Notes under the pieces: generated by a model
What the model was told of the DNA's origin: nothing
Databases searched by the model: none
Seen by the model: the letters and a program-made list of their open reading frames with translations, nothing else
Shown: positions 26,062 to 47,098 of the stretch, in pieces
How the letters are laid out: each line of letters begins with the position of its first letter
Position numbering within the stretch: the stretch's first letter is position 1
Made by a program: the position numbers and the translations under genes
Origin: Flavobacteriaceae bacterium
GTDB lineage: Bacteria > Bacteroidota > Bacteroidia > Flavobacteriales_C > GCA-002722245
DNA length: 64,000 nucleotides
Direction: 5' to 3'
Assembly: GCA_964230605.1 (NCBI GenBank)
Contig: CAXRIN010000046.1
Location: 11,793 to 75,792, forward strand

Positions 26062-27567
26062 ATGCGAAATTTTATTCTGTCATTATTACTTTTTGTTGCT
26101 TCTGGATTAAAAGCTCAGATTGTTTTGACGGCTCCAAGTCAGGAAGAAATTAATAGCTCAAGTTCAAACACAGCTGCTCTATTAATTGATACCACGATTG
26201 ATGTTTTAAATCAACTTGATAGTCGCGGTCGCCTAATTTTGGAAGTCCCTTCTTCGGAGGCTTTGAATTTATATTTTAGTGATTTCCATTTGTCTAGGGG
26301 CTCAGTTTTGCGCATTCGAAATTCAATTGGGAGAATTATTTATTCTTTCAATTATTCTGATAATCCACATTCTCGCTTTTTTGCAATTCCTCCGGTTGAA
26401 GGTCATCAGATTGAATTAGAGGTAGAAGGGGATGTGAAGGATTCCAAGATGATGATAAGTGAGGTAGGTTATTTTTTTAAATCAGAGGAAGATATAAAAA
26501 CATCCGGCTTTTGTGAAGTTGATGTAAATTGTAGTGAAGGCGATGAATGGCAGGATCAAAAAAAAGGTGTTGTCCGATTGCTATTAAAAACTAATGCTAG
26601 CTCTGTATATTGTTCAGGGACTTTACTGAATAATACGGCTAGAAACTGCAGACCATTTATTTATTCTGCCGATCATTGTTTAGATGGTGTTTCGGCTAAT
26701 AATCTGAATCAATCCTTTGCTTATTTTAATTATGAGAATTCTACATGTGGTTCTGATGATGGTGCCTCATCGGAATTTGTTTTAGGCATGAAATTAAGAG
26801 CTTCACAAACTTTTGATGATGGTGCAGACTTCATATTACTTGAATTAAATAGTGATGTTCCGCTAGAATACAGTCCTTATTTTAATGGTTGGAACCGAAC
26901 AGATGGTAATTTTTCAAACGGCGTTTCTATTCATCATCCAAATGGGGATGTTAAGAAAATCTCTACTTATAATTCATTCCTTTCAACTTCTAATTCAAGT
27001 CAATTAACGACCAATGCTTTTTGGCAAGTGAATTGGGTTGAAACCAATAACGGCCATGGTGTAACTGAAGCAGGTAGTTCAGGATCGCCTCTGTTTAATC
27101 AAGAAAAATTGGTAGTAGGAGCTTTGTCAGTAGGTTCTTCATTTTGTTCAAAGCCTAACGATCCAGATTTTTACGGCAAAGTTCATTACGGTTGGGATCA
27201 GGGAATAGATTCGACTCAACGTTTAGATTATTGGTTAGATCCAATCCAATCAGGAGAAGAAAAAATCCCAGGAAGTTATTTCCCATGTAATGATACAGCA
27301 ATTCAATACCTGCCAATAGATAGTATAGTGATTTTGGGAAATCTTGTTCAAGATGCATTGACTTTATATATTGAGCAAAAAGAGTCAAGTAAAGTTGATA
27401 TCGAAATATATTCAACTAGTGGGCAACTAGTTTTCATAAGAGAGTTTGATGCATCTAATATCATCAATGAAACGATGAATGTTGGCACATTAAGAGATGG
27501 CGCCTATTTCGTGAAGGTTGTTACTGGTGCCGAGACAAAAATTCTTCGATTTATAGTCGTTAATTAA
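26062..27567 (+). CDS. secreted trypsin-fold serine endopeptidase (lysyl/glutamyl-endopeptidase-like) with T9SS C-terminal sorting domain
   Basis: Signal peptide. Catalytic His context SADHC. Ser context GSSGSPLF. C-terminal ~80 aa (LTLYIE..KVDIEIYSTSGQLVF..KILRFIVVN) matches the Por-secretion CTD pattern. Confidence 0.6.
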   Translation: MRNFILSLLLFVASGLKAQIVLTAPSQEEINSSSSNTAALLIDTTIDVLNQLDSRGRLILEVPSSEALNLYFSDFHLSRGSVLRIRNSIGRIIYSFNYSDNPHSRFFAIPPVEGHQIELEVEGDVKDSKMMISEVGYFFKSEEDIKTSGFCEVDVNCSEGDEWQDQKKGVVRLLLKTNASSVYCSGTLLNNTARNCRPFIYSADHCLDGVSANNLNQSFAYFNYENSTCGSDDGASSEFVLGMKLRASQTFDDGADFILLELNSDVPLEYSPYFNGWNRTDGNFSNGVSIHHPNGDVKKISTYNSFLSTSNSSQLTTNAFWQVNWVETNNGHGVTEAGSSGSPLFNQEKLVVGALSVGSSFCSKPNDPDFYGKVHYGWDQGIDSTQRLDYWLDPIQSGEEKIPGSYFPCNDTAIQYLPIDSIVILGNLVQDALTLYIEQKESSKVDIEIYSTSGQLVFIREFDASNIINETMNVGTLRDGAYFVKVVTGAETKILRFIVVN

Positions 27568-31378: not shown

Positions 31379-32326
31379 ATGAAAGAGCAAGAAATTCAAG
31401 AGGAGGTAGAATATTCTATTATAAGTCCAGTGTACGGCGCTGAAAAAATAGTTGGTGAGCTTGTTACACAGATTGAAAAATATATATCGCGTATTTCTGA
31501 TAGTTATGAAATCATTTTAGTGGAAGATAACTCTCCCGATGATTCTTGGAAAGAAATACAAAAGGTATGTCAAGAAAACACAAGAGTAAGAGGTGTTCGC
31601 TTGAGTAAAAATTTTGGACAGCATAAAGCTATATCTTGCGGTTTAGATTTATCTAAAGGGAAATATGTTTTTGTAATGGATTGTGATCTTCAGCATCACC
31701 CTAAGGATTTCAAACTTTTTGTTGATGCAATGAAGAGTAATGATATTGTTTATGGAATCCATTCAAAAAGGAAGCATTCATTTTTGAAAAATCTAACAGC
31801 TGGTATTTTTTATTATTTCTATAATCTGTTGTCAGATGTTAAACACGATTCTTTTGGCGGAGAGTTAAGCAATTTTGTGTTAATGAAGCGGAAGGTTGTA
31901 AATTCTCTTTGTCAAATAAGAGAAGAGAATTCCCATTTTTTATTGAATCTAAGATTAATAGGTTTTAATTATTCTATAGTAGAAATAGAGCATTTAGTGC
32001 GGTACGAAGGGAAAAGTTCCTACAAGTTAAAAAAGTTAATTACGCATGCGGTTGATGGGTTGACGGCTCACTCAGCAAAGATTTTATACCAATCCATATA
32101 TCTGGGATTAATATTGTTTTTAATAAGTATAATTTTCGGATCATATGTTTTGTTAAAGTTTTTTATAAATGGGTCTATACCAGGATATACTTCAATCATT
32201 TCGATTATGATATTTCTTGCAGGTATAATTTTATTTATGCTTGGAATAACAGGTTTGTATATTGGTAAAATTTTCACTCAAGTAAAAAACAGACCTCTTT
32301 ATCATATTAATGAAATTTTAAATTAA
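31379..32326 (+). CDS. GT2 polyprenyl-phosphate glycosyltransferase (GtrB/ArnC/DPM1-like, catalytic domain + two C-terminal TM helices)
   Basis: GT2 motifs (SIISPVYG, VEDNSPDDS, VMDCDLQH DxD-like). Two C-terminal TM helices, as in GtrB/ArnC enzymes that make Und-P-sugars. First gene of the long plus-strand operon. Confidence 0.65.
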   Translation: MKEQEIQEEVEYSIISPVYGAEKIVGELVTQIEKYISRISDSYEIILVEDNSPDDSWKEIQKVCQENTRVRGVRLSKNFGQHKAISCGLDLSKGKYVFVMDCDLQHHPKDFKLFVDAMKSNDIVYGIHSKRKHSFLKNLTAGIFYYFYNLLSDVKHDSFGGELSNFVLMKRKVVNSLCQIREENSHFLLNLRLIGFNYSIVEIEHLVRYEGKSSYKLKKLITHAVDGLTAHSAKILYQSIYLGLILFLISIIFGSYVLLKFFINGSIPGYTSIISIMIFLAGIILFMLGITGLYIGKIFTQVKNRPLYHINEILN

Positions 32327-32332
32327 AAGATT

Positions 32333-33139
32333 ATGGCTTCGTACGGATTTGATAAACAAAACTCTGACTCTGATATTATTAAGGAAAGTCTTAAGTTAAA
32401 TGGTTTTTACCTTTTAAAGGGGGTTTTAAATGATCAAGAGATTAAAACTATACGTGAAAAATTAGATTATTATTTAACAGTACAGGAATCAGAGTTTAGT
32501 CAGGATGAATTAAAGTCGATTAAAGAAGGAAATCAGTTGAGAGCTCCTTTACAATATGACGAAGTATTTCTGGATATGATTATGAAGCCTCAAATAGTTG
32601 ACTATGTTAAAAGTCAACTAGGAGATTATTACATACTTCATCAACAAAACTCAATTATTAATAAGCCTTCAACTGAGCATCATCAATCTGCATGGCATAG
32701 AGATTTACCGTATCAGAATTTAGTGATTTCCAGGCCTTTAGCTGTTAATGCTTATTATTGTATTGATGATTTTACACCAGAAACAGGCTCTACAATTTTT
32801 GTTCCACATACGCATAATGTTGAGTTTTACCCAAGTGAGGAATATCTTAAAGAAAACTCGGCTCAGTTAACTGCTGCTCCTGGAGATGTGATATTATTTG
32901 ATACTATGATTATTCATAAGGCCGGTTATAATAGTTCTAATCAAATAAGGAGAGGTATTAACAATATTTTCGCCAGACCAATTTTAAGACAACAATTGGA
33001 TTACAATGTGTTGTTAAAAGAAAAATATGCTAATCATTCTCCTGAGATAAAAAGAATGTTAGGTTTTGATTGTTCTGCTCCTTATTCGGTAAAAGAGTTT
33101 AGAGACAGACAGTTAGATAGACAAAAAAATAAAAAATGA
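32333..33139 (+). CDS. phytanoyl-CoA dioxygenase (PhyH)-family Fe(II)/2-oxoglutarate oxygenase
   Basis: AWHRDLPY (HxD), distal His in IIHKAG, and Arg near the C-terminus (IRRG). 268 aa. Confidence 0.65.
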   Translation: MASYGFDKQNSDSDIIKESLKLNGFYLLKGVLNDQEIKTIREKLDYYLTVQESEFSQDELKSIKEGNQLRAPLQYDEVFLDMIMKPQIVDYVKSQLGDYYILHQQNSIINKPSTEHHQSAWHRDLPYQNLVISRPLAVNAYYCIDDFTPETGSTIFVPHTHNVEFYPSEEYLKENSAQLTAAPGDVILFDTMIIHKAGYNSSNQIRRGINNIFARPILRQQLDYNVLLKEKYANHSPEIKRMLGFDCSAPYSVKEFRDRQLDRQKNKK

Positions 33140-33909
33140 AGGAGATACATATTGTTAAGGATATTGATGAACTTTTGAATGATTCGGCAAAGCTAGAGTC
33201 GTTAAAAGAGAAAATAGTTGATGACGATTTAGTAGTAATAAAAAACGTGATTGATAAAAGTTTAATTGCTGAACTAAAGAGTTATTTAGTGAATGTTGGA
33301 AGATCTTCTTTTCCTAATTATGAAAAAATAGAATTAGGAGCAAAAGATTTTCATAGGATTAATAATAATGATCCAAGAGCATATGTTAAAGGAACTTTTC
33401 ATCAGTTTGTGTTTTATCCTTGGAATCAGAATTATTTTAACCTTTTTGATCAATTTAAGAAAGCATACAGGGTGAAAAATTTATTAAGTAACATTGGTGA
33501 AGAGGAATTTCTTGATCCAAAGGAAGGTGATGATTTTACTGCAAGAATTGCTTTTCAGTTTTATCCTAAAGGAAATGGATTTTTAAATGAACACAGAGAT
33601 CCAGTAGATAGACACCAAATAGTTGTGCCAATATTAATCATGTCTGAAAAAGGAGATGAGTTTAATGAAGGTGGAGTGTATTTCAGATATGAAGATGACG
33701 AAAAAGTTTATGTAGAAGATTATACTCAAATTGGTGATGTAGCTTTCTTTAAAGCTTCTTTAAGACATGGAGTTGAGGATATTGATCCGGGAACTGATTC
33801 TAATTGGTTAGACTTTAAGGGTAGATGGATGGGCTTACTCGCTGTGAATAAATTTTTCAATGTAACATCTGTAGCTAATGCTGTTGATTTGAATTCCGAA
33901 AAAAAATGA
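33136..33909 (+). CDS. hypothetical protein, possible second Fe(II)/2OG-oxygenase (cupin) family member
   Basis: NEHRDPVD (HxD-like) and ...LRHGVEDI distal His with a spacing reminiscent of 2OG oxygenases. No other recognisable motif. 4-nt overlap with neighbours. Confidence 0.3.
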   Translation: MKEIHIVKDIDELLNDSAKLESLKEKIVDDDLVVIKNVIDKSLIAELKSYLVNVGRSSFPNYEKIELGAKDFHRINNNDPRAYVKGTFHQFVFYPWNQNYFNLFDQFKKAYRVKNLLSNIGEEEFLDPKEGDDFTARIAFQFYPKGNGFLNEHRDPVDRHQIVVPILIMSEKGDEFNEGGVYFRYEDDEKVYVEDYTQIGDVAFFKASLRHGVEDIDPGTDSNWLDFKGRWMGLLAVNKFFNVTSVANAVDLNSEKK

Positions 33910-34826
33910 GTGTTCTTTCGTGGGAAAAATTAGGGTTGGTTTTAGCTCCTTCTCAGGAAGTTAAATGGATGACAACATTTGCTAGTAGTACAGCTGTAAA
34001 AGTAGTGGATGAAAAGGAAGGACTTATTGATATTTTTGTTACTGGAAGGGATGATATGAATCGGAGTCTTATTGGCTGTGTGAAGTTTAATGTTTTTAAG
34101 CATGAGGTTATCGAAATCTCTAAGGAAGAGGTCCTTAATTTAGGTCCATTAGGAACTTTTGATGAAAACGGACAATCTTACCCTTCGTATTTATTTGATG
34201 GGGATAAAGAGTGTTTGTACTACACAGGTTGGTCTCCAAGTGTACTTACTCCTTTTCAGAATTTTGTAGGTTTAGGAGTAAGAAAAAAAGGAGAGGAAAA
34301 GTTTTGCAGATATTCAAACGCTCCTGTTTTAGATAGAAATAATGAAGATTATTCATCTATTGGTTCCTGTTATGTTTTAAAAAGTCAGGATCATTTTAAG
34401 ATGTGGTATACTGCATTTAGAAATTGGGAAAAAACAGAAAATGGTACAAGGCACTATTATCGAATAAAATATGCTCATTCAAAGGATGGCGTGAATTGGG
34501 AAAGAGATAATGCTGTATGTATTGATTTTGAAAGTGAAAATGAGTACGCAATAGCCAGACCAACTGTTTTTGAGTTGAATGGAGAATATAATATGATGTA
34601 TTGTTACCGTGGTGATAAATACAGATTAGGTTATGCTACTTCAAAGGATGGTATTAACTGGACAAGGAGGGATAATGATCTTATGTTTGTAGGGGATGAT
34701 TTAGAATTTGATTCATATGAAAGGAATTATCCAACTGTGTTTAGCTTAAACGGAGATCATTATTTACTTTATTCCGGAAATAATTATGGCGAAGCTGGCT
34801 TTGGAATAGCAAAACTTATAAAATGA
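33906..34826 (+). CDS. five-bladed beta-propeller protein of the GH43/GH32/GH130 superfamily (glycosidase/phosphorylase-like)
   Basis: Repeated blade motifs SKDGVNWER, SKDGINWTR and W-Y-T... patterns typical of this propeller clan. 306 aa, no signal peptide. Confidence 0.35.
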   Translation: MSVLSWEKLGLVLAPSQEVKWMTTFASSTAVKVVDEKEGLIDIFVTGRDDMNRSLIGCVKFNVFKHEVIEISKEEVLNLGPLGTFDENGQSYPSYLFDGDKECLYYTGWSPSVLTPFQNFVGLGVRKKGEEKFCRYSNAPVLDRNNEDYSSIGSCYVLKSQDHFKMWYTAFRNWEKTENGTRHYYRIKYAHSKDGVNWERDNAVCIDFESENEYAIARPTVFELNGEYNMMYCYRGDKYRLGYATSKDGINWTRRDNDLMFVGDDLEFDSYERNYPTVFSLNGDHYLLYSGNNYGEAGFGIAKLIK

Positions 34827-35602
34827 TACCATTATTTGACAGTCTTACACATCCTACTTTACAAGGAAATTGGCTTGATAGAGATACCGTAGCTACTTTT
34901 GAAGATTTGAAAAATCAAATGGATAAGAGTAATGTTTCTTTTGCTATAGCATGTGGCATAAATGGAAATGCTTACTCTCATGAAAGGTATTATTTAGAAT
35001 CAACTAAAATTAAGGGGCTCGTTCCAATTGCAAGATTAGATATGTCTGTTAAAGACATTGAGAAAGAAATTGAACGAATTTCCGAAATAGGTTTTAAAGG
35101 AATAAAAATTCATCCTAGGTTTGAAAATTTTGATTATTCAGAAGATATATTAGCAAGAGTCTTTATAAAATGTCAGGATTTAGGGATTGTTGTTCATTGG
35201 TGTTCTTTCTATTATTCTAAAATAGAGAATTACCCAAGTTTTGATCCTTATTTTTCTATAATAAGAACATTGAAAAAAGCTCCAAAAACTACATTAGTAA
35301 TTGTACACGGTGGGGTTCATGATATTATGAAATATGCTGAATTAGCAAGGTTTAATGATAATATTTTAATTGATTTATCTCTTACGCTTTTTCAGTATCG
35401 AAATACAACTCATTACCAAAATATTATCTTTCTTCTATCTAAAATTGACCGGAGACTTTGTCTGGGGTCAGATCATCCAGAAGTAAGTTTAATGCAATTA
35501 AGAGAGCAGTTTGATGAGTTTTGTGCTATGGATATACCAGTAGAAAAACTTTGGAACATTGGTATTCGAAATATTTCCAAAAAATATAATATTGAAATAT
35601 GA
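34823..35602 (+). CDS. amidohydrolase-2 (TIM-barrel metal-dependent hydrolase) family protein
   Basis: N-terminal FDSLTHPT (FDxHxH-like, degenerate) and C-terminal GSDHP motif typical of the Amidohydro_2 family. 259 aa. Confidence 0.45.
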   Translation: MIPLFDSLTHPTLQGNWLDRDTVATFEDLKNQMDKSNVSFAIACGINGNAYSHERYYLESTKIKGLVPIARLDMSVKDIEKEIERISEIGFKGIKIHPRFENFDYSEDILARVFIKCQDLGIVVHWCSFYYSKIENYPSFDPYFSIIRTLKKAPKTTLVIVHGGVHDIMKYAELARFNDNILIDLSLTLFQYRNTTHYQNIIFLLSKIDRRLCLGSDHPEVSLMQLREQFDEFCAMDIPVEKLWNIGIRNISKKYNIEI

Positions 35603-36801
35603 AAATTGCATTTTTAGGTGCTTCGGGAACTCAGTTATCGCCAATACAATATGCAGTTAGTAAAGGGTATGAAACAATAACTATTGATAATATTCCTTCT
35701 AATCCAGGACATCAACTTTCGGATAAGTATTTTAATGTTAGCATTACAGATAAGGAGAAGGTTTTAGAGATTTGCAGAACTGAAAATATTGATGGTGTTG
35801 TAGGATATGCTTCTGATTTAGCAAGTATAACCCAGGCATTTATAGCTAAAAAATTATTTTTAGTTGGTTCGGGAATTGAAACAAATTCAATTTTAGTAAA
35901 TAAAGATAAGTTTAGAGAATACTTAAAACAAGAAGAGCTTCAGGATATCTTTTTTCAAAAGATACATTTAAATGAGTTTGATAATTTGTTTGATATTGTA
36001 AAGTCGTTTCCAGAATCACATAAATTAATTATTAAGCCAACAGATTCGGCAGGGTCAAAAGGTGTTTATATTTTTAATGCTGGTGATTTTGATCAGGCTA
36101 TAGCAAAGGAAGCGTTTAACTTTTCAATATCGAAAACAATTATTATCGAAAGCTTTTTGGAAAAGCTTAAACCTCAGGTTTGTGGAGATGGATTTATGTA
36201 TGATAATAAATTGGCTTTTATAGATTATGGAGATGGTTATTTTCATGATTTTGAAAAATCTCCTGTTCCCTATGGAGAAACTTTTCCAGGGACACACTCA
36301 CCAGTGATTTATCAAAAAATAGGAGAAAAACTGGAAGAGATATTATGCAAATTGAATTATCAGGGACCGTTTAATTTTGATGTTTTTGTTTTAGCAAACG
36401 GAGAGATTTTTATTAATGAAATAGGACCAAGAAGCGGAGGGAATTTTATACCTGATATAATTGGATTGAAAAATGGATTTGACTTTGTAGGAGAAGTAGT
36501 TGAGTTCTTTTTGGGTAGGAAACCTAGCTTTCCTGAAGTTAATAACACTAGAGGTGTAGGCTCTTATATGATTCATAGTCATAATGAAGGTATTTATAAA
36601 GGAGTAATCCTACCGGACTCTTTAATGGTAAATGTGGTGAAAAAAAGGTTATTTATTAATCCTAATGATAAGGTTACTATGTTTCATTCGGGAAATCATT
36701 CTATAGGTAATTTAATATTGGAATTTACTTCTGTTAAGGACTTACCAGAGGTATTTAAAAATTTTTATGAAAGGATAGAAGTTCAGCTGTTAGATATTTA
36801 A
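35599..36801 (+). CDS. ATP-grasp domain ligase (carboxylate–amine ligase-like)
   Basis: 400 aa. Pre-ATP-grasp Rossmann-like N-terminus (KIAFLGASG). Central ATP-grasp features (IIKPTDSAGSKGV, E..I..EIGPRSGG). Confidence 0.5.
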   Translation: MKIAFLGASGTQLSPIQYAVSKGYETITIDNIPSNPGHQLSDKYFNVSITDKEKVLEICRTENIDGVVGYASDLASITQAFIAKKLFLVGSGIETNSILVNKDKFREYLKQEELQDIFFQKIHLNEFDNLFDIVKSFPESHKLIIKPTDSAGSKGVYIFNAGDFDQAIAKEAFNFSISKTIIIESFLEKLKPQVCGDGFMYDNKLAFIDYGDGYFHDFEKSPVPYGETFPGTHSPVIYQKIGEKLEEILCKLNYQGPFNFDVFVLANGEIFINEIGPRSGGNFIPDIIGLKNGFDFVGEVVEFFLGRKPSFPEVNNTRGVGSYMIHSHNEGIYKGVILPDSLMVNVVKKRLFINPNDKVTMFHSGNHSIGNLILEFTSVKDLPEVFKNFYERIEVQLLDI

Positions 36802-36825
36802 AACAGATTTGATTTGAACTAATAT

Positions 36826-36833
36826 TACTTTTG
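36826..36833 (+). promoter_or_regulatory. candidate Bacteroidota sigma-A -7 box (TACTTTTG = TAnnTTTG) ~93 nt upstream of wzm
   Basis: Exact match to the TAnnTTTG consensus in the 124-bp gap upstream of wzm. A TTTG is present ~12-17 nt upstream. Position-only evidence. Confidence 0.2.
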
Positions 36834-36925
36834 GGTTGAAAATTACCCTCAAAACCTCCTGTTATTAAAAAATATAAGGTAGTTTCCTTATTTCTTTTTA
36901 GTTTAGTCGAGCTAAAAGTTCTAAT

Positions 36926-37789
36926 ATGTCGGAATCCAAGTGGACTGAAATTATTTTCCCAAAGAGGTCTTTAGGAGCACTAAATTTAAAAGAGTTATTT
37001 AAGTATAAGGATCTTATTTTACTTTTTGTAAAGAGGGATTTTGTAGCTTATTATAAACAAACAATTTTAGGTCCATTTTGGTATTTACTTCAACCAATAA
37101 TTCAAACAGTTATATATGCTTTAACTTTTGGAGCTGTATTTAATGTTAAAGAAGGTACGAGTATACCTTCGTTTTTATTTTTCTTGTCGGGAAATGTTAT
37201 GTGGTGGTATTTTGCTCAAAGTTTAGTGAAAACATCGAATACTTTTACTGAAAATGCTCATATATTCGGTAAGGTTTATTTTCCTAGGTTAACAGTTCCT
37301 GTGTCTGTTTTGATATCTAATATGATAGGGTTTGGAATCCAGTTTTCATTATTTATTGTAGCGTATCTGTTCTTTATTTTTGGAAAAGGAATGGATTTTT
37401 ATCCAAGTATTAAAGGGTTGTTATTTTTTCCCATAATTATTCTTAATATGGCAATATTAGGACTTGGATTAGGTTTGATAATATCTTCGTTAACAACAAA
37501 GTATAAGGATTTTAAACATTTTGTAGGATTTGGAGTACAGTTATTGATGTTTGCGTCTCCTGTAATATTTCCTTTACAAGTAGCTGAAAGTAAGTTTGGA
37601 GCGTTTGCTAAATTGATCCAATATAATCCGATGACACCAATTATTAGAAGTTTCAGAGCTTCGTTTTTTCCTGATTTTGTATTTAATTACGAGGATTTAC
37701 TGTACAGTGGAATATGTGCGGTAGTATTTTTCTTATTTGGCGCCTTTTTGTTCAATAAGACGGAGCAAAACTTTATGGATACGGTATAA
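36926..37789 (+). CDS. ABC-2 type polysaccharide export permease (Wzm/KpsM/NodJ-like)
   Basis: 287 aa. 6 TM segments with the ABC-2 arrangement. Immediately followed by the Wzt ATPase. Confidence 0.8.
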   Translation: MSESKWTEIIFPKRSLGALNLKELFKYKDLILLFVKRDFVAYYKQTILGPFWYLLQPIIQTVIYALTFGAVFNVKEGTSIPSFLFFLSGNVMWWYFAQSLVKTSNTFTENAHIFGKVYFPRLTVPVSVLISNMIGFGIQFSLFIVAYLFFIFGKGMDFYPSIKGLLFFPIIILNMAILGLGLGLIISSLTTKYKDFKHFVGFGVQLLMFASPVIFPLQVAESKFGAFAKLIQYNPMTPIIRSFRASFFPDFVFNYEDLLYSGICAVVFFLFGAFLFNKTEQNFMDTV

Positions 37790-37790
37790 T

Positions 37791-39083
37791 ATGAGTAATG
37801 ATATAGCAATAAAAGTAGAAGGATTATACAAACAATACCGTCTTGGAGTTATTGGAGCGGATACTCTAAAAGATGATTTAAAACTTTTATGGGGAAAAAT
37901 TCGAGGAAAGTCAATATCTGATTTGTATAATATTGATTCCAACGATAGAATGGTTGGTAATTCCGAATATGTATGGGCTCTTCAGGATATAAATTTTGAA
38001 GTAAAAAAAGGAGAGATTTTAGGGATTATAGGGAAGAATGGAGCCGGGAAATCAACACTGTTAAAGGTTTTGTCAAAAGTTACTGGTCCAACTAAAGGAT
38101 CAATCAAGGTAAATGGAAGGATAGCATCATTATTAGAAGTCGGTACCGGATTTCATCCAGAATTAACGGGGCGTGAAAATATTTTTCTTAATGGCGCCAT
38201 TTTGGGAATGAAAAGAGCTGAAATCAAATTGAAATTGGATGAAATTGTTGATTTCAGTGGAATAGGAAAATATTTAGATACACCAGTAAAAAGATACTCC
38301 TCTGGTATGAAGGTGAGATTAGGGTTTGCTGTTGCAGCGCATCTTGAACCTGAGATTTTAATTGTTGATGAGGTACTTGCTGTTGGTGATGCTGAATTTC
38401 AGAAGCGTTGTATCGGTAAAATGAATGACGTTTCAAAAAATCAGGGGAGAACCGTATTGTTTGTCAGTCATAATATGAGTTCTGTTATGGAACTATGTGA
38501 TAGAGGTTTGTTGATGAAGAACGGAACAGTAGCTCAAACAGGAGCCATTTCTGATATAATTCCAGCGTATTTGAATTCTTTTAAAAGTGAATTTAAAACG
38601 AAAGATTTATATCAGGTTCAAACTCGAACAGGAAATGGGAATATTGTGTTTTATCAATATGATTTATTGGATATTGATGGGAACTCAATTGATTTTGCTC
38701 TTAGTGGACAAAAATTAAGGTTTCATTTACGGCTGAAGGTTAATAAACAGGAAGATTATAAAAGGATTCATTTATCAATGAAATTTGTTGATGAAAATGA
38801 TGTGTCTCTTTTCCATGTATCAAATTCTGTTTCAAATGGTAAAGAATTTGAAGTAGTTCAAGGGAAGGAATTTCTAGATGTATTTTGTGAAATTGAAAAA
38901 CTACCGCTTCAGCCAGGAATTTATAGTTTTCATTTATTTTGTAGTGATTTGCAGAAGGTCTTTGACGAAATCAATTTTGCAGGTGAATTGAAAGTTGAGG
39001 GGGGGAATTTCTTTTCAAGCGGGAAACTTCCTGCTAAGGATTTAGGAACCTTTTTAGTTGAAAATAATTGGATAATTAAATGA
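37791..39083 (+). CDS. ABC transporter ATP-binding protein (Wzt/KpsT/NodI-like) with C-terminal carbohydrate-binding (Wzt-C-like) beta-sandwich extension
   Basis: Start MSNDIAIKVEGLY (internal Met of the tracked ORF; 1 nt after the wzm stop). Walker A GKNGAGKST, signature YSSGMKVRL, Walker B ILIVDE. ~190 aa beyond the NBD, as in Wzt proteins that recognise a terminal glycan modification. Confidence 0.85.
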   Translation: MSNDIAIKVEGLYKQYRLGVIGADTLKDDLKLLWGKIRGKSISDLYNIDSNDRMVGNSEYVWALQDINFEVKKGEILGIIGKNGAGKSTLLKVLSKVTGPTKGSIKVNGRIASLLEVGTGFHPELTGRENIFLNGAILGMKRAEIKLKLDEIVDFSGIGKYLDTPVKRYSSGMKVRLGFAVAAHLEPEILIVDEVLAVGDAEFQKRCIGKMNDVSKNQGRTVLFVSHNMSSVMELCDRGLLMKNGTVAQTGAISDIIPAYLNSFKSEFKTKDLYQVQTRTGNGNIVFYQYDLLDIDGNSIDFALSGQKLRFHLRLKVNKQEDYKRIHLSMKFVDENDVSLFHVSNSVSNGKEFEVVQGKEFLDVFCEIEKLPLQPGIYSFHLFCSDLQKVFDEINFAGELKVEGGNFFSSGKLPAKDLGTFLVENNWIIK

Positions 39084-40213
39084 TTATGAAAGGAAAAAAT
39101 GTTATTATTTTAACAACCTCTTTCACACATGGTGGCGCCGAAAAACATGGGCTATTATTAGCCGATTATTTTAAAAATTCTCTTAATCTTAATGTAGAGT
39201 TTTGGGCCTTTAGGGCCGGAACTAAGGTTTTGAGTGATCAAGCTGAAGGTTTAGGTATTCCAACAAAAGTTATTGGTGCCCCGCCAAGAGTTGGGAGATA
39301 CTTGGGAAAAATTCATAAAGCAAAAGCGGTTAAGGTATTTAAGGATTTTAATCCTGACGTAATTATCGCTTTAAACAGAGAGGCGAATTTATATATAGCA
39401 AATATTGGAAAGCTTACAGGAGCTAAAAGTTTAGTTTGGTCAATTCAAACAGCGTTTGATTGTGAGGACCTTAATGAATCTGAAATTAGATCATTAAATA
39501 ATATTGATCTATTCTTATCAAACTCACAACATGGAATTAAATACATGAGAGATAAGTTCGCTTTGCCCTCTGATAAATTTCATTTTATTAAAAATGGATT
39601 TAGCATGGAAATAATTGAGAATAGTAAGGTTGATTACAGGGCTTTAGTAGGAGCGAATGAAAATGATTTTCTTATCACCATGGTAGGCCATATAGAGGAT
39701 AGAAAAGACCATCTTTCACTTATAAGATCTATTAAACCTTTGAAATCTAAACTATCTTCAAAAGGAATAAATCCTGTTCTTATTTTAGCTGGTAAGTTAG
39801 GAACAGATATTGAAAAGTTAATTGCAGAGACTATAGAATTAGGAGTTTATAGAAATGTTAAGTTTTTGGGGCCCATCAAGAATGTGCCTGATCTGTTGAG
39901 AAATGTTGATTTATACGTTATGTCATCAGTTGTTGAGGGTATGCCAAATGCTGTGATAGAAGCAATGCATTATGGATTACCTATTGTTGCGAATGACGAG
40001 GCAGGTAATATGGAGGCGTTAGATTATAATAACAGAGATTTTATAGCTGAAAGTAATAATCCTGAAAGCTTAGCCGAAAAAATGTCATTTTTAATTTTAA
40101 ATAGAGATAAAGCAATAGAACTAGGGAAAAGGAATGAAGAATATGCCCGAAAGAATTATACGAGTGATAAACTAGGTTCTGATACTTGGAAGGTAATTTC
40201 AAAAAGTATATAA
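39080..40213 (+). CDS. glycosyltransferase family 4 (GT-B)
   Basis: 377 aa. C-terminal GT4 motif EGMPNAVIEAMHYGLPIVAND. Confidence 0.7.
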   Translation: MIMKGKNVIILTTSFTHGGAEKHGLLLADYFKNSLNLNVEFWAFRAGTKVLSDQAEGLGIPTKVIGAPPRVGRYLGKIHKAKAVKVFKDFNPDVIIALNREANLYIANIGKLTGAKSLVWSIQTAFDCEDLNESEIRSLNNIDLFLSNSQHGIKYMRDKFALPSDKFHFIKNGFSMEIIENSKVDYRALVGANENDFLITMVGHIEDRKDHLSLIRSIKPLKSKLSSKGINPVLILAGKLGTDIEKLIAETIELGVYRNVKFLGPIKNVPDLLRNVDLYVMSSVVEGMPNAVIEAMHYGLPIVANDEAGNMEALDYNNRDFIAESNNPESLAEKMSFLILNRDKAIELGKRNEEYARKNYTSDKLGSDTWKVISKSI

Positions 40214-40219
40214 TTTGAT

Positions 40220-42091
40220 ATGTGCGGAATTGCAGGGGTAATTGCTGGTGATGGAGAGAAAGTTTCAAGAGACTTTTTAACCGAATTGGCGAAAACATTA
40301 AATCATAGAGGTCCGGATTCTTTTGGAATTGTAAATAAAGAAAATGTAGGTTTAGTTCATACGAGGCTTGCAATAATTGATTTACATAATGGTCAACAAC
40401 CAATATTCGACGAGTCAGGGAGATACGGTTTGGTTTATAATGGGGAGCTCTATAATTACAAAATCCTTAGAAAGGAATTAATTGGTAAAGGTTATAAGTT
40501 CGACACTAACTCGGATTCTGAGGTTATTTTAATATCATTTATTCATTGGGGGAAAAAATGTGTTGAAAGATTCCGCGGTATGTTTGCTTTTGCTGTGTTT
40601 GATTTTGGAAAAAAGAGTGTTTTTCTTTCAAGGGATCATATAGGAATTAAACCTCTTTGCTATTATAATAAAGATGGTAAGTTTGTTTTTAGTTCAGAAT
40701 TACAAACATTCAATAAGCTATCTTCAATAAAAAAGTCGCTAAATTTAGGTGCATTAGATAATTACCTATGGTTATCTTATATTCCAGCTCCTAAATCTAT
40801 TTATAATGAGGTTCAAAAGTTACCTCCAGCCCATAGAATGGAAGTTTCTTTTGAGGGAGAGATTAAATACGTAGAGCGATATTGGGACGTGAAATATGAA
40901 CCTGATAATTCTCTTACTTTTAATGATTGGATAGATTTTACGCATGAGAAAATAACTGAAAGTATTAAGATGCATCTCGTCTCAGATGTTGGGTTTGGAG
41001 CCTTTCTTTCTGGAGGTATTGATTCGACACTTGTTGCATCGTATATGTCCGAATTGGCTTCAGAACAGGTTAAAACTTTTTCAATTGCGTTTGATGAGGC
41101 AGCTTTTAATGAAATTGATTACGCAAAAGAAGCGAGTGAAGTTTTAGGGTTGGATCATACTTTTAAAATAGTAAAGGCGGATGTTATTGAAATGCTACCG
41201 AAAATAGTTGAATTATATGGAGAACCATATGGGGATAGTTCTGCTATGCCAACATTTTATGTTTCGGAATTGGCTAGAAAAGATGTTAAAATGGTGCTCT
41301 CTGGAGATGGTGGAGATGAGGCTTTTTTGGGCTATAATAGATATAAAGTTTGGGATAAGAAACTAAGGACTAGATTAGGTGTGTCCAAACTTAAGGGTAT
41401 GTTTTTACCTATTGCACACAAATTAAACCCTGATAGATATAGTTCTTTATACCCTAAGGCAACTGCAAAGTCATTTCTCTCAACAATTGACTACATTGCT
41501 GAGGATAGAAGATATTTACTTTGGAAAGACGATTATCATGAATATATTTCCAATCATTGGAAAGATATCGAAGAAAAAATAAAGGTTAAAAAGAGATTAA
41601 ATAATTATAATAAAGGACAATATATAGATTTGCACAGCTATTTACCTTATGACATTTTAAATAAGGTTGATATTGCTAGTATGGCAAATAGTTTGGAAGT
41701 AAGAACTCCACTGGTAGACAAAGATATTTTTGAATTTGCAGGAAAAATACCTCCTAATTTTAATTTACAGAAAAAAAATGGAGTTTTAGAACCTAAGTTT
41801 CTGTTAAAGAAACTACTTGAGAAAAAATTTAGCGATAAGTTTATTTATCGACCGAAATCTGGTTTTAGTTTACCCTTCGATATTTGGTTTAATCCAAATA
41901 ACGGAAAGCTATCTAGCTATATTAGAGAGAGGTTGCTAGATCCTAATGCGAAAATAAATTTGTTTTTTAATTCAAAAGCAATTACTAATATGGTTAATTC
42001 TACTTCAAATAGTGGAGGTACTTCATATAGTGGATCTATTTGGTTACTTTTATTTTTGGAAGAGTGGTTGGAACAAAATAGGATTGATTAA
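40220..42091 (+). CDS. asparagine synthase (glutamine-hydrolysing)-family amidotransferase, copy 2
   Basis: MCGIAGVIAG N-terminus. SGGIDST PP-loop. 623 aa. Divergent paralogue of 16370..18253. Confidence 0.8.
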   Translation: MCGIAGVIAGDGEKVSRDFLTELAKTLNHRGPDSFGIVNKENVGLVHTRLAIIDLHNGQQPIFDESGRYGLVYNGELYNYKILRKELIGKGYKFDTNSDSEVILISFIHWGKKCVERFRGMFAFAVFDFGKKSVFLSRDHIGIKPLCYYNKDGKFVFSSELQTFNKLSSIKKSLNLGALDNYLWLSYIPAPKSIYNEVQKLPPAHRMEVSFEGEIKYVERYWDVKYEPDNSLTFNDWIDFTHEKITESIKMHLVSDVGFGAFLSGGIDSTLVASYMSELASEQVKTFSIAFDEAAFNEIDYAKEASEVLGLDHTFKIVKADVIEMLPKIVELYGEPYGDSSAMPTFYVSELARKDVKMVLSGDGGDEAFLGYNRYKVWDKKLRTRLGVSKLKGMFLPIAHKLNPDRYSSLYPKATAKSFLSTIDYIAEDRRYLLWKDDYHEYISNHWKDIEEKIKVKKRLNNYNKGQYIDLHSYLPYDILNKVDIASMANSLEVRTPLVDKDIFEFAGKIPPNFNLQKKNGVLEPKFLLKKLLEKKFSDKFIYRPKSGFSLPFDIWFNPNNGKLSSYIRERLLDPNAKINLFFNSKAITNMVNSTSNSGGTSYSGSIWLLLFLEEWLEQNRID

Positions 42092-42140
42092 TTTTAAATT
42101 CACTAAACATTCTCTTTGAGGAAGCATAAAAGATAAAAAT

Positions 42141-43052
42141 ATGAAGTCATTATTTATTATAGGATGCCCGAGGAGTGGAACAACATACCTTTTAAGGTTG
42201 TTGGCTTCAAATCAAGAGTTTGCCTGGATAACAAATGAATTAAATAACAATCCTAAAGAATACAATCTATCTAGTCGATTAAATAAATATTCGGGGTCTT
42301 TTTGGAGAAAAAAGCGCTATTTAAACCATGGACAAGGCTCTGGAAAATATCCTTTTTCAGTTGAGCCATGGAAATTTTGGAATACTCATTTTGAGTATTT
42401 TCAATGGAATAAAGGTTTTTCTGATGTACCTGTAAATGCTTTGCCAGAGCATAATTCCCCGAAAGTTATACAAGATGTTCGTAACGGTGTTGAAGAGATA
42501 TTAAAGCACTCAGGAAGACATGCCTTTCTAAGTAAATATACTGATTTCCCAAGGGTTAAATTACTTTTGGAAGCCTTTCCAGAAGCAAAGTTTATCCATC
42601 TGGTAAGAGACGGTAGAGCTGTAGCGAATTCATATTATAAAAAAATTAAATCAGGTGAATTTAATACTTCAAAAGAAGAGTCTAATTGGGTTTCTGCTTG
42701 GCCGAAAGATTGGCAAGAAGAGTATCAAAGCATTGATAATAAGCTTTTAGCTTTTACTTTATATCAATGGAAGTTTTTTGTGGATCAGATTATAGAGGAG
42801 TTAAAAGAAGTAGAGCAGGAAAGAGTATTAGAAGTAAGATATTCAGATTTAGTAAGTGGTACGAGAAAAACTGTGGAGAGGATCATGGACTTCATAGATT
42901 TACCAATTGATAAGTCGATGGATTTCTTTATAGATCATCTTCCTGGGCATGATATGAATTATAAATGGAAAGAGAAATTGTCTGAGGATGAAAAATCTCT
43001 TTATAACTTTATACTTAGAGAAGAAAGATTTATACAATTTTTGGACAATTAA
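42141..43052 (+). CDS. sulfotransferase-family protein (PAPS-dependent, P-loop 5'-PSB + 3'-PB motifs)
   Basis: 5'-PSB-like GCPRSGTTYL. 3'-PB-like HLVRDGRAVANS. 303 aa, cytoplasmic. Confidence 0.6.
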   Translation: MKSLFIIGCPRSGTTYLLRLLASNQEFAWITNELNNNPKEYNLSSRLNKYSGSFWRKKRYLNHGQGSGKYPFSVEPWKFWNTHFEYFQWNKGFSDVPVNALPEHNSPKVIQDVRNGVEEILKHSGRHAFLSKYTDFPRVKLLLEAFPEAKFIHLVRDGRAVANSYYKKIKSGEFNTSKEESNWVSAWPKDWQEEYQSIDNKLLAFTLYQWKFFVDQIIEELKEVEQERVLEVRYSDLVSGTRKTVERIMDFIDLPIDKSMDFFIDHLPGHDMNYKWKEKLSEDEKSLYNFILREERFIQFLDN

Positions 43053-43056
43053 GCTA

Positions 43057-44178: not shown

Positions 44179-45019
44179 CTTAGTGTCCATTGTCATACCG
44201 TTTTTTAATCATGGCCGGTATATTCAAAATAGTATTGAATCAGCCCTTAATCAAACATATAATAATATTGAAGTTATTGTTGTTAATGATGGCTCAAACG
44301 AGGAGCATTCTAGTGTTCTGAAAAAAATAGTGACTAAGTACGATAATGTAAGAATTGTTTTTCAAGAAAATCAAGGGCCTTGTTCAGCAAAAAACAATGG
44401 TGTGGGGGAGGCAAATGGTGACTATATACTTTTCCTGGATTCTGATAATGAGTTATTACCACATTATGTTAAAAGTGGTATGGAATTGTTGTTGTCAAAC
44501 GAAAATGCAAAATGGGCCTTTGGAGATTTTGAATTTTTTGGAGATAAAATGGGGGTGAAAAATCAAGGGTTTGATGATAAAAGAAAAATTATTTTCTCTA
44601 GTCAAATTGACAACTGCATTTTAATTGAAAAGGAAACATTCTATAGCATAGGAAAATTTGATACTCATTTAAATAGGCTTGGGTTAGAGGATTGGGATAT
44701 GATAATCTCTCTTTGCTCGAAAGGTGTACCGTTTGTGAAAATTAACAGTGTAACATTTAAGTATAGAGTAGTTGATGATTCAAGAACAAATATAGAAGCA
44801 AATAAAAATTTAGTAGAAATAAAAGCCTATTTAGCTAAAAAACACTGTAATTTCATTTTGAATAATTATGAGGATTTATTTTATGAAAAAAATAGATTGA
44901 TATCTTCCGTAGATAAAAAAATAGGAAGCTTAATTTTAGCACCGTACCGATTAATCAAGAAGCTTTTTGGAGTCAGTAAGGAAGCGCTGAGAAAAATTGA
45001 TGAGTTAAATAAAGGTTAA
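44165..45019 (+). CDS. glycosyltransferase family 2
   Basis: VSIVIPFFNHGRYIQNSIESALNQTY, VVNDGS and FLDSDN (DxD) motifs. Confidence 0.75.
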   Translation: MLMPSLVSIVIPFFNHGRYIQNSIESALNQTYNNIEVIVVNDGSNEEHSSVLKKIVTKYDNVRIVFQENQGPCSAKNNGVGEANGDYILFLDSDNELLPHYVKSGMELLLSNENAKWAFGDFEFFGDKMGVKNQGFDDKRKIIFSSQIDNCILIEKETFYSIGKFDTHLNRLGLEDWDMIISLCSKGVPFVKINSVTFKYRVVDDSRTNIEANKNLVEIKAYLAKKHCNFILNNYEDLFYEKNRLISSVDKKIGSLILAPYRLIKKLFGVSKEALRKIDELNKG

Positions 45020-45070
45020 CCACTCTTCTTGATGTGAAATCGTTTGAGCTATTAATTTTTTCAATGTACA

Positions 45071-46105: not shown

Positions 46106-46147
46106 AGTTCGTCTTTAAGTTTTAAATTTACAACAAATTGTAAACAA

Positions 46148-47095: not shown

Positions 47096-47098
47096 CAC

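Follow-up and report, generated by a model that had tools for sequence, protein, structure and literature searches.

Gene content of the cassette

The 64-kb stretch of DNA analysed here (the window) carries a run of five open reading frames, all on the forward strand and all starting with ATG. In the ORF listing of the window they lie exactly where the original prediction had placed them, and its assignment of domain types to the five products was upheld. These genes (1–5), together with the other features that enter the analysis, are as follows.

31379–32326, + strand: GtrB/ArnC-type polyprenyl-phosphate glycosyltransferase of family GT2, first gene of the cassette (Pfam, NCBIfam, PDB alignment)
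32333–33139, + strand: gene 1, PhyH-family 2OG/Fe(II) dioxygenase, accessory (PF05721, 1.3e-25)
33136–33909, + strand: gene 2, predicted 2OG/Fe(II) oxygenase of a new family (sub-threshold Pfam match, conserved residues, AF2 and Foldseek)
33906–34826, + strand: gene 3, cytoplasmic five-bladed beta-propeller, distantly GH130/GH43/GH137-like (PF04041, AF2, Foldseek)
34823–35602, + strand: gene 4, divergent Amidohydro_2 TIM-barrel enzyme (PF04909, 7.3e-10)
35599–36801, + strand: gene 5, ATP-grasp carboxylate-amine ligase (weak Pfam matches, PDB alignment)
36926–39083, + strand: wzm and wzt, ABC exporter with a Wzt_C domain, downstream context (Pfam ABC2_membrane, ABC_tran, Wzt_C)
57270–58880, − strand: 536-aa polytopic membrane protein, by position only a candidate periplasmic transferase
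59911–61062, − strand: WecE-type dTDP-4-amino-4,6-dideoxyhexose transaminase (NCBIfam NF008687)
61198–61865, − strand: two half-size EamA proteins of 113 and 108 aa, ArnE/ArnF-like candidate flippase subunits (Pfam EamA, NCBIfam)

The four internal junctions of the five-gene block all consist of an ATGA overlap, and a search for terminator-like sites within the block found none. The claim that all five genes overlap their neighbours holds at these junctions but not at the outer edges, where the stop codon of the GT2 gene lies 6 nt 5′ of the PhyH gene and a 124-nt spacer, containing a Bacteroidetes-type −7-like box (TACTTTTG at 36826), separates gene 5 from the start of wzm. The overlaps point to translational coupling only, and not to the stoichiometric expression that had been read from them. 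The limits of the unit were also drawn too narrowly: it starts one gene earlier, at the previously omitted GT2, and comprises a six-gene cassette at 31379–36801.

The GT2 protein matches Pfam Glycos_transf_2 (8e-26), has PgfS and ArnC as its top NCBIfam matches and aligns over its full length with Synechocystis GtrB (5EKP, 4e-49) and ArnC (9HWJ, 1.6e-26). Two C-terminal transmembrane helices are predicted (residues 240–258 and 273–291), and a DCD sequence at residues 101–103 is aligned with the DAD motif (DxD) of GtrB.

Both oxygenases retain the HxD...H triad on alignment. In the PhyH protein, H122, D124, H195 and R206/R207 align with the triad of solved homologs. The sole Pfam match of gene 2, to 2OG-FeII_Oxy_3, is sub-threshold (18 bits; cutoff 27), and a sequence search of the PDB returned no match. 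Four of its residues (H153, D155, H211 and R230) are invariant among 26 homologs, and a Foldseek search with its AF2 model (pLDDT 93.9) showed resemblance to the 2OG dioxygenases AndA, PrhA, EasH and P4H, with TM-scores of only 0.4–0.54. Judged from these residues and the modelled fold, gene 2 is a genuine 2OG/Fe(II) oxygenase, in agreement with its earlier description as a second oxygenase, and belongs to a family that has no Pfam model. The family has 936 representatives in 1.84 billion proteins, and in one lineage it is joined to a WecE-type transaminase in a single fusion protein.

The propeller matches PF04041 (GH130) only locally (8.7e-11). Its AF2 model shows five blades (pLDDT 96.2), with Foldseek TM-scores of 0.72–0.76 against BT_0996 and the GH130 enzyme Teth514_1788. 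The profile alignment with GH130 is rotated by two blades, and the one sequence alignment that reaches significance puts Arg218 opposite the catalytic Asp of the GH130 EDPR motif. The phosphorylase role that the original prediction suggested for the propeller is a conjecture. No transmembrane or signal segment was predicted in the protein, and residues 4–13 form a propeller strand in the model, which bears out the proposal that it is cytoplasmic and lacks a signal peptide.

For the amidohydrolase, a single-sequence search of the PDB gave no match; the top profile match is the uncharacterised BB4693 (3IRS, 1e-9), and D6, H10, K95, H97, R99, H162, D184 and D217 are invariant. The gene 5 product has several weak matches to Pfam ATP-grasp families, with PylC-like_N right at the cutoff. 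It aligns over its full length with the uncharacterised ATP-grasp protein 4DIM (1e-21) and weakly with the L-amino-acid ligase 4WD3.

Elsewhere in the window, the WecE-type transaminase (NF008687, 498.6 bits; cutoff 375) lies 23 kb from the cassette, on the opposite strand and beyond an IS element, and probably supplies the amino sugar. Adjoining it are the two EamA proteins (Pfam EamA, 3.5e-12 and 6e-8), whose top NCBIfam matches are ArnE (6e-8) and ArnF (1e-10), both under the curated cutoffs. The 536-aa protein has at least six predicted transmembrane segments and a large loop; Pfam, PDB and homolog searches gave no match for it. A search of the window for a GT-C transferase identified none, and neither rmlA nor rmlB was found in its 64 kb.

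Recurrence across genomes

With the gene 2 oxygenase as marker, 31 related loci were collected, which together with the window make a set of 32 spanning more than 10 bacterial phyla; the cassette is rare yet widely spread. Besides the marker itself (32/32 loci), the core consists of the GT2 (27/32), the amidohydrolase (27/32), the ATP-grasp ligase (26/32, in at least two subtypes) and the propeller (25/32). All five core genes are present, in shuffled order, in 16 of the 31 related loci. Since the gene set recurs jointly in many unrelated genomes, the grouping is not due to chance. The PhyH gene, found in only 10 of the 32 loci, is an accessory member and not part of the core. A literature search found no account of the cassette.

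The most frequent non-core partner is a WecE-type transaminase (22/32 loci); RmlB-like genes lie near the cassette in 11 loci, RmlA-like genes in 8, and ArnF-like genes adjoin it in three (L019, L025 and L026). In a census of the 129 nearest genes at 21 related loci, the 25 commonest neighbour families were biosynthetic, among them methyltransferases, NAD-dependent sugar dehydratases/epimerases, glycosyltransferases and nucleotidyltransferases, and none was catabolic. This accords with the view of the block as a glycan-tailoring set. That the set is instead catabolic or serves salvage, with a GH130 phosphorylase and an amidohydrolase degrading a glycan or amino sugar, is suggested by Pfam names only (GH130, Amidohydro_2) and is highly improbable: every context is biosynthetic, the recurrent families at the 21 loci include no utilisation-type transporters, kinases, SusC/D or regulators, and the genes are translationally coupled to the GT2 inside a polysaccharide synthesis locus.

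The GT2 gene is the commonest direct neighbour of the oxygenase gene (9 loci). In three full-length loci (L024, L027 and L035) no GT2 lies within 10 kb, and transfer to a lipid carrier may accordingly be dispensable.

What varies between loci is the subtype of the ATP-grasp ligase and the presence of PhyH, of an HMGL-type aldolase together with a 347-aa protein, or of a 720-aa protein, as would be expected if a constant scaffold carried an acyl group that differs from locus to locus. Distant homologs of the propeller also travel with DegT and GtrB-like GT2 genes. One such locus (L036) has the order DegT, WbqC, propeller, GNAT, methyltransferase and GT2 and adjoins a PMT_2 GT-C transferase, and an archaeal locus (L037) holds DegT, acyl-carrier genes, propeller, WbqC and GT2. 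In these two and in the distant locus L006, WbqC takes the place of the ATP-grasp ligase.

Proposed pathway and alternative readings

Most likely, the product of the cassette is a decorated amino sugar, assembled on a lipid carrier in the membrane and destined for a surface glycan. In the more specific form of this reading, which we favour with middling confidence, the sugar would be a 4-amino-4,6-dideoxyhexose that is N-acylated, hydroxylated and linked to polyprenyl phosphate, made by a logic parallel to that of the Arn and Gtr systems. The WecE-type transaminase, assigned with confidence to its family, would convert dTDP-4-keto-6-deoxyhexose to the dTDP-4-amino sugar, and the ATP-grasp ligase would acylate its 4-amine with a carboxylic acid or an amino acid. 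The sugar or the acyl group could then be hydroxylated by the new oxygenase and here also by PhyH, both of which carry active-site triads. The GT2, whose family and topology are clear, would transfer the finished sugar to undecaprenyl phosphate. ArnE/F-like proteins may flip the lipid-linked sugar, and a membrane transferase would add it to an exported glycan, here probably the polysaccharide exported by Wzm/Wzt. The propeller and the Amidohydro_2 protein are conserved core members that stand outside these five proposed steps.

The original prediction had the ATP-grasp ligase form an amide between a hydroxylated amino acid or amine and the carboxyl group of a glycan uronic acid, in the manner of Cj1438 in the Campylobacter HS:2 capsule. 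The ligase and two hydroxylases that this needs are present, and so is a weak TupA-like (Cj1438-type) ATP-grasp match, but the latter, at 17 bits, falls short of the cutoff of 25. The locus in the window also holds AsnB-type amidotransferases, which amidate uronic acids in other bacteria. No UDP-glucose dehydrogenase or other uronic-acid enzyme was found among the recurrent neighbours of the cassette; the partner that does recur is a sugar 4-aminotransferase, in one lineage even fused to the oxygenase. On these grounds, as far as gene content and sequence can tell, the amide is more probably formed with the amine of a sugar than with a uronic acid. The uronic-acid reading, which in addition leaves the constant GtrB-like GT2 unexplained, appears unlikely.

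A different role is suggested by the position of the block, which is followed directly by wzm and by a wzt gene encoding a Wzt_C domain, an adjacency that is repeated at L023. The cassette might make the cap at the non-reducing end of the O-polysaccharide, to be recognised by the C-terminal domain of Wzt, so that chain termination is coupled to export. A clear wzm–wzt pair, however, adjoins the cassette at just two loci, the window and L023, and is missing from the closest relative (L007). The location directly upstream of wzm/wzt, although correctly described, is therefore incidental, and these genes are not part of the conserved cassette. In Gtr and Arn systems the lipid-linked sugar is used at the external face of the membrane, after export; a GtrB-type enzyme implies such use and not cytoplasmic capping. 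We regard the cap as decidedly improbable.

The same degree of doubt applies to a scheme in which the GT2 is merely a neighbour serving another sugar. Here the propeller would cleave dTDP from the amino sugar, C1 oxidation by the oxygenase would yield a lactone, and opening of this lactone by the Amidohydro_2 enzyme would give a free amino-polyhydroxy acid, which the ATP-grasp enzyme would ligate to another amine. For three of the four enzymes the proposed step is of a reaction type known in their superfamily (glycoside-hydrolase fold, Amidohydro_2, carboxylate-amine ligase), Amidohydro_2 includes 6-deoxy-sugar lactonases, and three loci carry the set without GT2. The exception is the oxygenase: C1 oxidation lies outside the known reactions of 2OG oxygenases, and we know of none that acts as a sugar C1 oxidase. 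The scheme is purely inferential, the GT2 gene is the one most often found next to that of the oxygenase, and the propeller has no demonstrable catalytic acid in its only significant alignment.

Comparison with known systems

The lipid-linked amino sugar that we favour has its nearest parallel in the Arn system (PmrHFIJKLM; ArnB, ArnA, ArnC, ArnD, ArnE/F, ArnT), which adds aminoarabinose to lipid A. Both have a DegT-family 4-aminotransferase, an ArnC-family GT2, which in the cassette aligns with ArnC structures over its full length, and small EamA proteins, the pair in the window matching ArnE/ArnF best. In Arn, acylation of the amine precedes the loading of the sugar onto undecaprenyl phosphate, as may also be the case here. 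The sugars differ, UDP-Ara4N in Arn and probably a dTDP-6-deoxyhexose of the WecE type here, and the ArnA formyltransferase/decarboxylase is absent from the cassette, where the ATP-grasp ligase would carry out acylation. The window yielded no ArnT-like GT-C protein, and the two oxygenases, the GH130-like propeller and the Amidohydro_2 enzyme have no Arn counterpart.

Among three-component Gtr systems (GtrA/GtrB/GtrC, Klebsiella GmlABC, streptococcal GacI/GacL), GtrB is the closest relative of the cassette GT2, and the related locus L036 likewise pairs a GT2 with its PMT_2 transferase. Gtr systems load unmodified Glc, Gal or GlcNAc, whereas the GT2 here is coupled to five or six soluble tailoring enzymes, and no GtrA-family flippase was seen.

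N-acylated dTDP-4-amino-4,6-dideoxyhexoses are made in E. coli O121 (Qui4N(N-acetylglycyl), VioA/WbqC) and in Bacillus anthracis (anthrose, antABCD). A WecE/VioA-type transaminase followed by N-acylation of the 4-amine is what we propose for the cassette; unlike it, these pathways acylate with acyl-CoA/ACP transferases or WbqC and rely on ordinary glycosyltransferases that act from the nucleotide sugar. To our knowledge, none of them contains the trio of oxygenase, propeller and amidohydrolase.

The C-terminal ATP-grasp amidoligase of Campylobacter jejuni Cj1438 (HS:2 glucuronamide) shares with the cassette ATP-dependent amide formation in a surface-polysaccharide locus. The TupA-like match is below threshold and uronic-acid supply genes do not recur, and the amine partner in the cassette is most likely the sugar.

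Finally, the GH130 beta-mannoside phosphorylases and hydrolases (Teth514_1788/1789, BT3780) have the five-bladed fold in common with the cytoplasmic propeller (TM-scores 0.72–0.75), which passes their Pfam model locally. The similarity appears only with the two-blade rotation, and the EDPR aspartate falls on Arg218 in the alignment. The propeller stands in a biosynthetic context, where its links are to a GtrB-like GT2 and an amino-sugar transaminase and not to mannan metabolism.

Gene layout and conservation of the cassette

The five open reading frames predicted between 32333 and 36801 were recovered at exactly those coordinates, all on the + strand and all beginning with ATG. The unit to which they belong is longer than originally proposed and includes the glycosyltransferase gene immediately upstream. 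Its members, together termed the cassette, are:

31379-32326 (+), upstream gene: GtrB/ArnC-type GT2, homologous end to end, with DxD and a C-terminal pair of TM helices
32333-33139 (+): gene 1, PhyH oxygenase
33136-33909 (+): gene 2, new oxygenase
33906-34826 (+): gene 3, GH130-like propeller
34823-35602 (+): gene 4, Amidohydro_2 protein
35599-36801 (+): gene 5, ATP-grasp protein

The original prediction that every gene overlaps its neighbours by 4 nt (ATGA) holds at all four internal junctions and fails at both ends of the block. The stop codon of the GT2 gene lies 6 nt before gene 1, and gene 5 is separated from wzm by 124 nt (36802-36925). At 36826 in this spacer lies a -7-like box of the Bacteroidetes type, TACTTTTG, preceded by TTG motifs at a distance of only 9-14 nt; it is a possible internal promoter dividing the cassette from the exporter genes. 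No terminator-like site was found within the five-gene block. A sigma-70 scan returned promoter-like sites more rarely than in shuffled sequence and a single terminator-like site, equal to the shuffle expectation; such scans are thus uninformative for a Bacteroidota genome. Further downstream, wzt as called starts at a TTG and overlaps wzm by 53 nt (37737-37789). The ABC domain of its product does not start before residue 82, and the real start is probably further downstream.

Using gene 2 as the probe, we collected 28 loci from representative genomes together with metagenome and plasmid loci (other-genome loci carry L numbers below). They come from Flavobacteriales, Sphingobacteriia, Melainabacteria and Obscuribacterales, Bdellovibrionota, Omnitrophota, Verrucomicrobiota, Polyangiaceae, a cyanobacterium (Hyella), Nitrospira, Halomonas, Legionella, Dongiaceae, Eremiobacterota and Planctomycetota. 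Families were counted by unbiased clustering of all open reading frames in 32 non-duplicate loci, including the window.

Table. Occurrence of gene families at the 32 loci
New oxygenase (the probe gene itself): 32/32
GtrB-like GT2: 27/32
Amidohydro_2: 27/32
ATP-grasp: 26/32
Propeller: 25/32
WecE-type transaminase: 22/32
Methyltransferase: 13/32
RmlB-like: 11/32
PhyH: 10/32
HMGL-type aldolase: 9/32
RmlA: 8/32

All five core genes (GT2, new oxygenase, propeller, Amidohydro_2 and ATP-grasp) are present in 16 of the 31 related loci, in shuffled order, which argues for selection on co-function and not for inherited synteny. A GT2 is missing nearby in three loci, and apart from the window only L023 has a clear wzm-wzt pair beside the cassette. 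The window has the look of Flavobacteriia DNA: its GC content is 31-34%, it encodes a T9SS sorting domain at 26062-27567, and the nearest relative of its cassette is a Flavobacteriales MAG locus. On the cultured Pseudoroseomonas cervicalis plasmid pL11-D, RefSeq labels the products 'hypothetical protein', 'amidohydrolase family protein' and 'ATP-grasp domain-containing protein'. Full-text literature searches returned no account of the combination of oxygenase, propeller, amidohydrolase and ATP-grasp.

Across the loci a constant set (GT2, new oxygenase, propeller, amidohydrolase and usually the WecE-type transaminase) is accompanied by a variable one, consisting of the ATP-grasp subtype and one of three additions: PhyH (window, L007-L010), an HMGL-type aldolase with a 347-aa protein, or a 720-aa protein. 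Such variation agrees with a sugar scaffold that stays the same and an acyl substituent, fed to the ligase, that changes. The 347-aa protein is family-less and adjoins the aldolase in six loci. The gene for the protein of about 720 aa separates the ATP-grasp gene from the propeller gene in L001 (12164-14317), L003, L014, L017, L020 and L021; neither Pfam nor NCBIfam places the protein in a family, and none of its segments exceeds the KD threshold for TM helices (≥6 segments).

Enzyme families of the cassette

On alignment, both genes 1 and 2 keep the HxD...H triad on which their original reading as oxygenases depended. Gene 1 matches PhyH (PF05721) over profile positions 3-213 of 213 (91.4 bits, cutoff 22; E = 1.3e-25), and its H122, D124 and H195, together with R206/R207, align with the iron triad and the 2OG-binding Arg of DhiD (8ZYB). 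Gene 2 falls in no curated family: its top Pfam match, 2OG-FeII_Oxy_3, reaches 18.1 bits (cutoff 27), and neither NCBIfam nor PDB sequence searches gave a match. For this oxygenase and for the amidohydrolase, single-sequence PDB searches returned nothing, and profiles and structure prediction alone were informative. Residues H153, D155, H211 and R230 of gene 2 are invariant in 26 homologous sequences. Its AF2 model is confident (pLDDT 93.9), and the best Foldseek matches are all 2OG dioxygenases (probability 1.0), at TM-scores of just 0.40-0.54. Because the triad and Arg are invariant and the model matches 2OG dioxygenases only, gene 2 represents a divergent 2OG/Fe(II) oxygenase family that has no Pfam model. 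A clustered set of 1.84 billion proteins contains about 936 representatives of it. In seven loci (L003, L024, L025, L026, L027, L029 and L031) the new oxygenase has a divergent second copy in place of PhyH (E-values 1e-11 to 1e-17; 2e-74 in L026), so that two oxygenases per cassette are a recurrent arrangement.

The product of gene 3 is a five-bladed beta-propeller (AF2 pLDDT 96.2). As originally noted, it has no signal peptide, and no TM segment is predicted either. It scores 41.8 bits against PF04041 (cutoff 26), the best stretch covering only residues 184-239 and profile positions 66-122 of 320. Foldseek placed it as close to GH137 BT_0996 as to GH130 Teth514_1788 (TM-scores 0.72-0.76 overall, 0.72-0.75 for the latter), and the sequence similarity to GH130 becomes visible only after a two-blade rotation. 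In the sole significant, blade-rotated profile alignment, the catalytic Asp of the GH130 EDPR motif corresponds to R218, and the gene 3 family has no conserved acid at this position. We therefore reject a canonical GH130 phosphorylase, which lacks its catalytic Asp here. A glutaminyl-cyclase-type propeller, also five-bladed, was dropped as none appeared in the top 50 structural matches.

Distant homologs of the propeller keep the same company, which ties it to the pair of sugar 4-aminotransferase and GtrB-like GT2, from Bacteroidota to methanogenic archaea. L036, on a JGI 3300056811 contig, encodes DegT, WbqC, the propeller, a second propeller, GNAT, a methyltransferase and a GtrB-like GT2, with a PMT_2 GT-C (the membrane transferase class of ArnT) adjoining. 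The collection lists its propeller protein in 71 blocks, and the locus is a common variant with the clearest three-component layout. The archaeal L037 encodes a nucleotidyltransferase, WecE-like transaminase, radical SAM, FkbH, ACP, KR, methyltransferase, hexapeptide acyltransferase, propeller, WbqC and GT2. Both share these partners and lack the oxygenase, amidohydrolase and ATP-grasp genes; WbqC, for which we found no published biochemistry, appears to stand in for the ligase.

Gene 4 passes Amidohydro_2 (PF04909; 39.5 bits, cutoff 26.4). The metal or active-site ligands expected of this family are HxH at strand 1, His at strands 5/6 and Asp at strand 8; here the N-terminal motif is D6-x3-H10, and H97, H162 and D217 are invariant. 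Its solved relatives are all uncharacterised proteins, the best being BB4693 (1e-9). Gene 5 is an ATP-grasp ligase: it aligns over its full length (residues 3-377) with an uncharacterised ATP-grasp protein, 4DIM (1e-21), and weakly matches an L-amino-acid ligase. Its Pfam matches are at or under the cutoffs, and the TupA/Cj1438-type model PF14305 was not passed (17 bits, cutoff 25; E = 0.0044).

Residues 9-313 of the upstream GT2 align with residues 25-329 of Synechocystis GtrB (5EKP; 4e-49), and ArnC (9HWJ) is matched at 1.6e-26. Its DCD at 101-103 aligns with DAD, and TM helices 240-258 and 273-291 form the typical C-terminal pair of polyprenyl-phosphate glycosyltransferases. It falls short of the curated PgfS and ArnC equivalog cutoffs, and is thus a family member, not an ortholog.

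Putative amino-sugar and delivery genes in the window

The following features of the window lie outside the cassette:

10257-18253 (-): Wzc-type locus (GNVR/AAA_31 tyrosine-kinase-like), WecA-type GT4-family initiating transferase, GT4, AsnB-like
16370-18253 (-) and 40220-42091 (+): AsnB-like amidotransferase genes
42141-43052 (+) and 61852-62739 (-): sulfotransferase-family genes in the glycan locus
46148-50053 (+): FabH-like KAS III, SDR ketoreductase, GNAT and polysaccharide deacetylase in a row
52204-55689 (+): MBOAT, then a 312-aa family-less protein (one N-terminal TM helix), then Acyl_transf_3
55765-57098 (-): apparently frameshifted IS3-type insertion sequence, with HTH_Tnp_1 and HTH ORFs followed by an rve integrase core
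57270-58880 (-): 536-aa polytopic membrane protein
59911-61062 (-): window copy of the WecE-type transaminase, 499 bits (cutoff 375)

The transaminase accompanying the cassette elsewhere scores 597 bits (cutoff 375) against the NCBI curated dTDP-4-amino-4,6-dideoxygalactose transaminase model, the same model that the window copy passes. The window gene lies 23 kb from the cassette, past the IS3-type element. In one lineage a WecE-like domain and the new oxygenase are fused in a single 777-aa protein (P0171), a Rosetta stone indicating that both act in one pathway. The linkers of this fusion, seen in P0171 and in P0169 (505 aa), are low-complexity, Ser/Pro-rich and eukaryote-like in look; judging by this composition, the pathway may have passed into a eukaryote. 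Neither rmlA nor rmlB was seen in the window.

The WecE gene belongs to a second, divergent gene set on the - strand (57270-63945), which resembles one half of an Arn-like system, the delivery half. It also encodes a 385-aa family-less polytopic protein, the sulfotransferase-like protein, two ArnE/F-like half-EamA proteins, Acyl_transf_3 and the family-less 536-aa protein. The two half-size EamA proteins adjoin WecE, and their best NCBIfam models are ArnE and ArnF (33-42 bits, cutoffs 92-99); ArnF-like genes, likewise below the curated cutoffs, adjoin the cassette in L019, L025 and L026. The window yielded no identifiable GT-C, and the 536-aa protein is a candidate by position only: Pfam to E 1, BLASTP against a PMT_2 protein, and searches for homologs and in the PDB were all empty. 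Near the cassette, PMT_2 was found in L022 and L036 only. Ten large polytopic proteins near the cassette in other loci comprise one PMT_2, one weak DUF2298, one DUF4153 and seven without a credible family, so that they do not establish a universal GT-C partner.

The Wzm/Wzt polysaccharide locus (36926-55689) encodes many further modifying enzymes. The row at 46148-50053 looks like a means of making and attaching a short hydroxyacyl group on an amino sugar, and the genes at 52204-55689 resemble AlgI/AlgJ-type or DltB/DltD-type O-acylation pairs; Hyella (L019), too, has an MBOAT homolog (7e-77) close to its cassette. The two sulfotransferase genes suggest a sulfated surface polysaccharide, and a homolog of the one at 61852-62739 stands beside the GT2 in L006 (5e-48). 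The IS3-type element separates the polysaccharide operon of the + strand from the Arn-like set of the - strand, a position that suggests recent rearrangement of the locus. With its separate Wzc-type locus at 10257-18253, the window carries two surface-glycan systems.

A candidate pathway and its relation to known systems

A census of the 129 nearest neighbour genes in 21 loci bears out the biosynthetic setting that had been expected: the 25 commonest families are biosynthetic and include methyltransferases, NAD-dependent sugar dehydratases/epimerases, GT4, nucleotidyltransferases and aldolases. Neither UDP-glucose dehydrogenase nor any catabolic family is among them. The original prediction proposed a hydroxylated amino acid or amine, amide-linked to a uronic acid, as in Campylobacter capsule; such a uronamide is not favoured by the recurrent gene partners. 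A nonulosonic-acid-like route, in which an aldolase condenses with a freed sugar, was weighed on account of the HMGL-type aldolases and dropped, as these occur in nine loci only and no CMP-activating enzyme recurs. In view of this biosynthetic neighbourhood, a catabolic reading was rejected.

We propose instead that the cassette modifies and delivers a 4-amino-6-deoxy sugar, a scheme to which, taken as a whole, we assign even chances and for which we infer the substrates, the order of the steps and the acceptor. The WecE-type enzyme would form a dTDP-4-amino-4,6-dideoxyhexose, which the ATP-grasp ligase would N-acylate with an amino or hydroxy acid donor and the 2OG oxygenases would hydroxylate. 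The GtrB/ArnC-type GT2 would then load the sugar on undecaprenyl phosphate, ArnE/F-like proteins would flip it, and a membrane transferase would add it to a glycan outside the cytoplasm, here probably the Wzm/Wzt-exported polysaccharide. The analysis establishes the enzyme families, their active-site residues, the co-occurrence, the fusion and the membrane topology. Weighing against the scheme are the failure to find a GT-C, rmlA or rmlB in the window, the three loci with no GT2 nearby, and the 23 kb and IS3-type element that separate the WecE gene of the window from the cassette.

More speculatively, and in our judgement improbably, the propeller could be a new kind of enzyme whose target is the glycosyl-phosphate bond in a polyprenyl-phosphate sugar or dTDP-sugar, for example a phosphorylase-like transferase using the lipid phosphate as its 'phosphate', and with the oxygenase and amidohydrolase could yield an undescribed class of modified 4-amino-6-deoxy sugar. 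If so, the metabolism of lipid-linked sugars would include a soluble step in the cytoplasm, and this would be new enzymology. To our knowledge, such a step has no precedent.

The cassette joins a Pfam-less 2OG oxygenase, a cytoplasmic GH130-like propeller and a divergent Amidohydro_2 protein to a well-understood delivery chassis of sugar transaminase, GtrB/ArnC-type enzyme and ArnE/F-like proteins. The functions of the three families are directly testable, with dTDP-4-amino-4,6-dideoxyhexose as the predicted entry, an undecaprenyl-phosphate sugar as the probable exit, and at least three cultured carriers: Hyella patelloides LEGE 07179 (L019), which has the full set and an ArnF-like gene, Halomonas denitrificans DSM 18045 (L024), and Pseudoroseomonas cervicalis PL22-11A with plasmid pL11-D (L035). 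If the proposed pathway holds, it would be a widespread, horizontally mobile route for placing a complex N-acyl amino sugar on surface glycans in many phyla, with a bearing on serotype diversity, phage and immune recognition, and cationic-peptide resistance.

The chassis of the cassette is Arn/Gtr-like. As in the Arn system, a DegT-family sugar 4-aminotransferase is present, here of the WecE type (in the window and in 22 of the 32 loci), although its sugar class differs from that of ArnB. In further contrast to Arn, a formyltransferase is absent from the window (one adjoins the cassette in L003), and as regards ArnD, the polysaccharide deacetylase of the window (49034-50053) shows no link with the cassette at the other loci. 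The sugar chemistry resembles that of the known N-acyl Qui4N/Fuc4N pathways.
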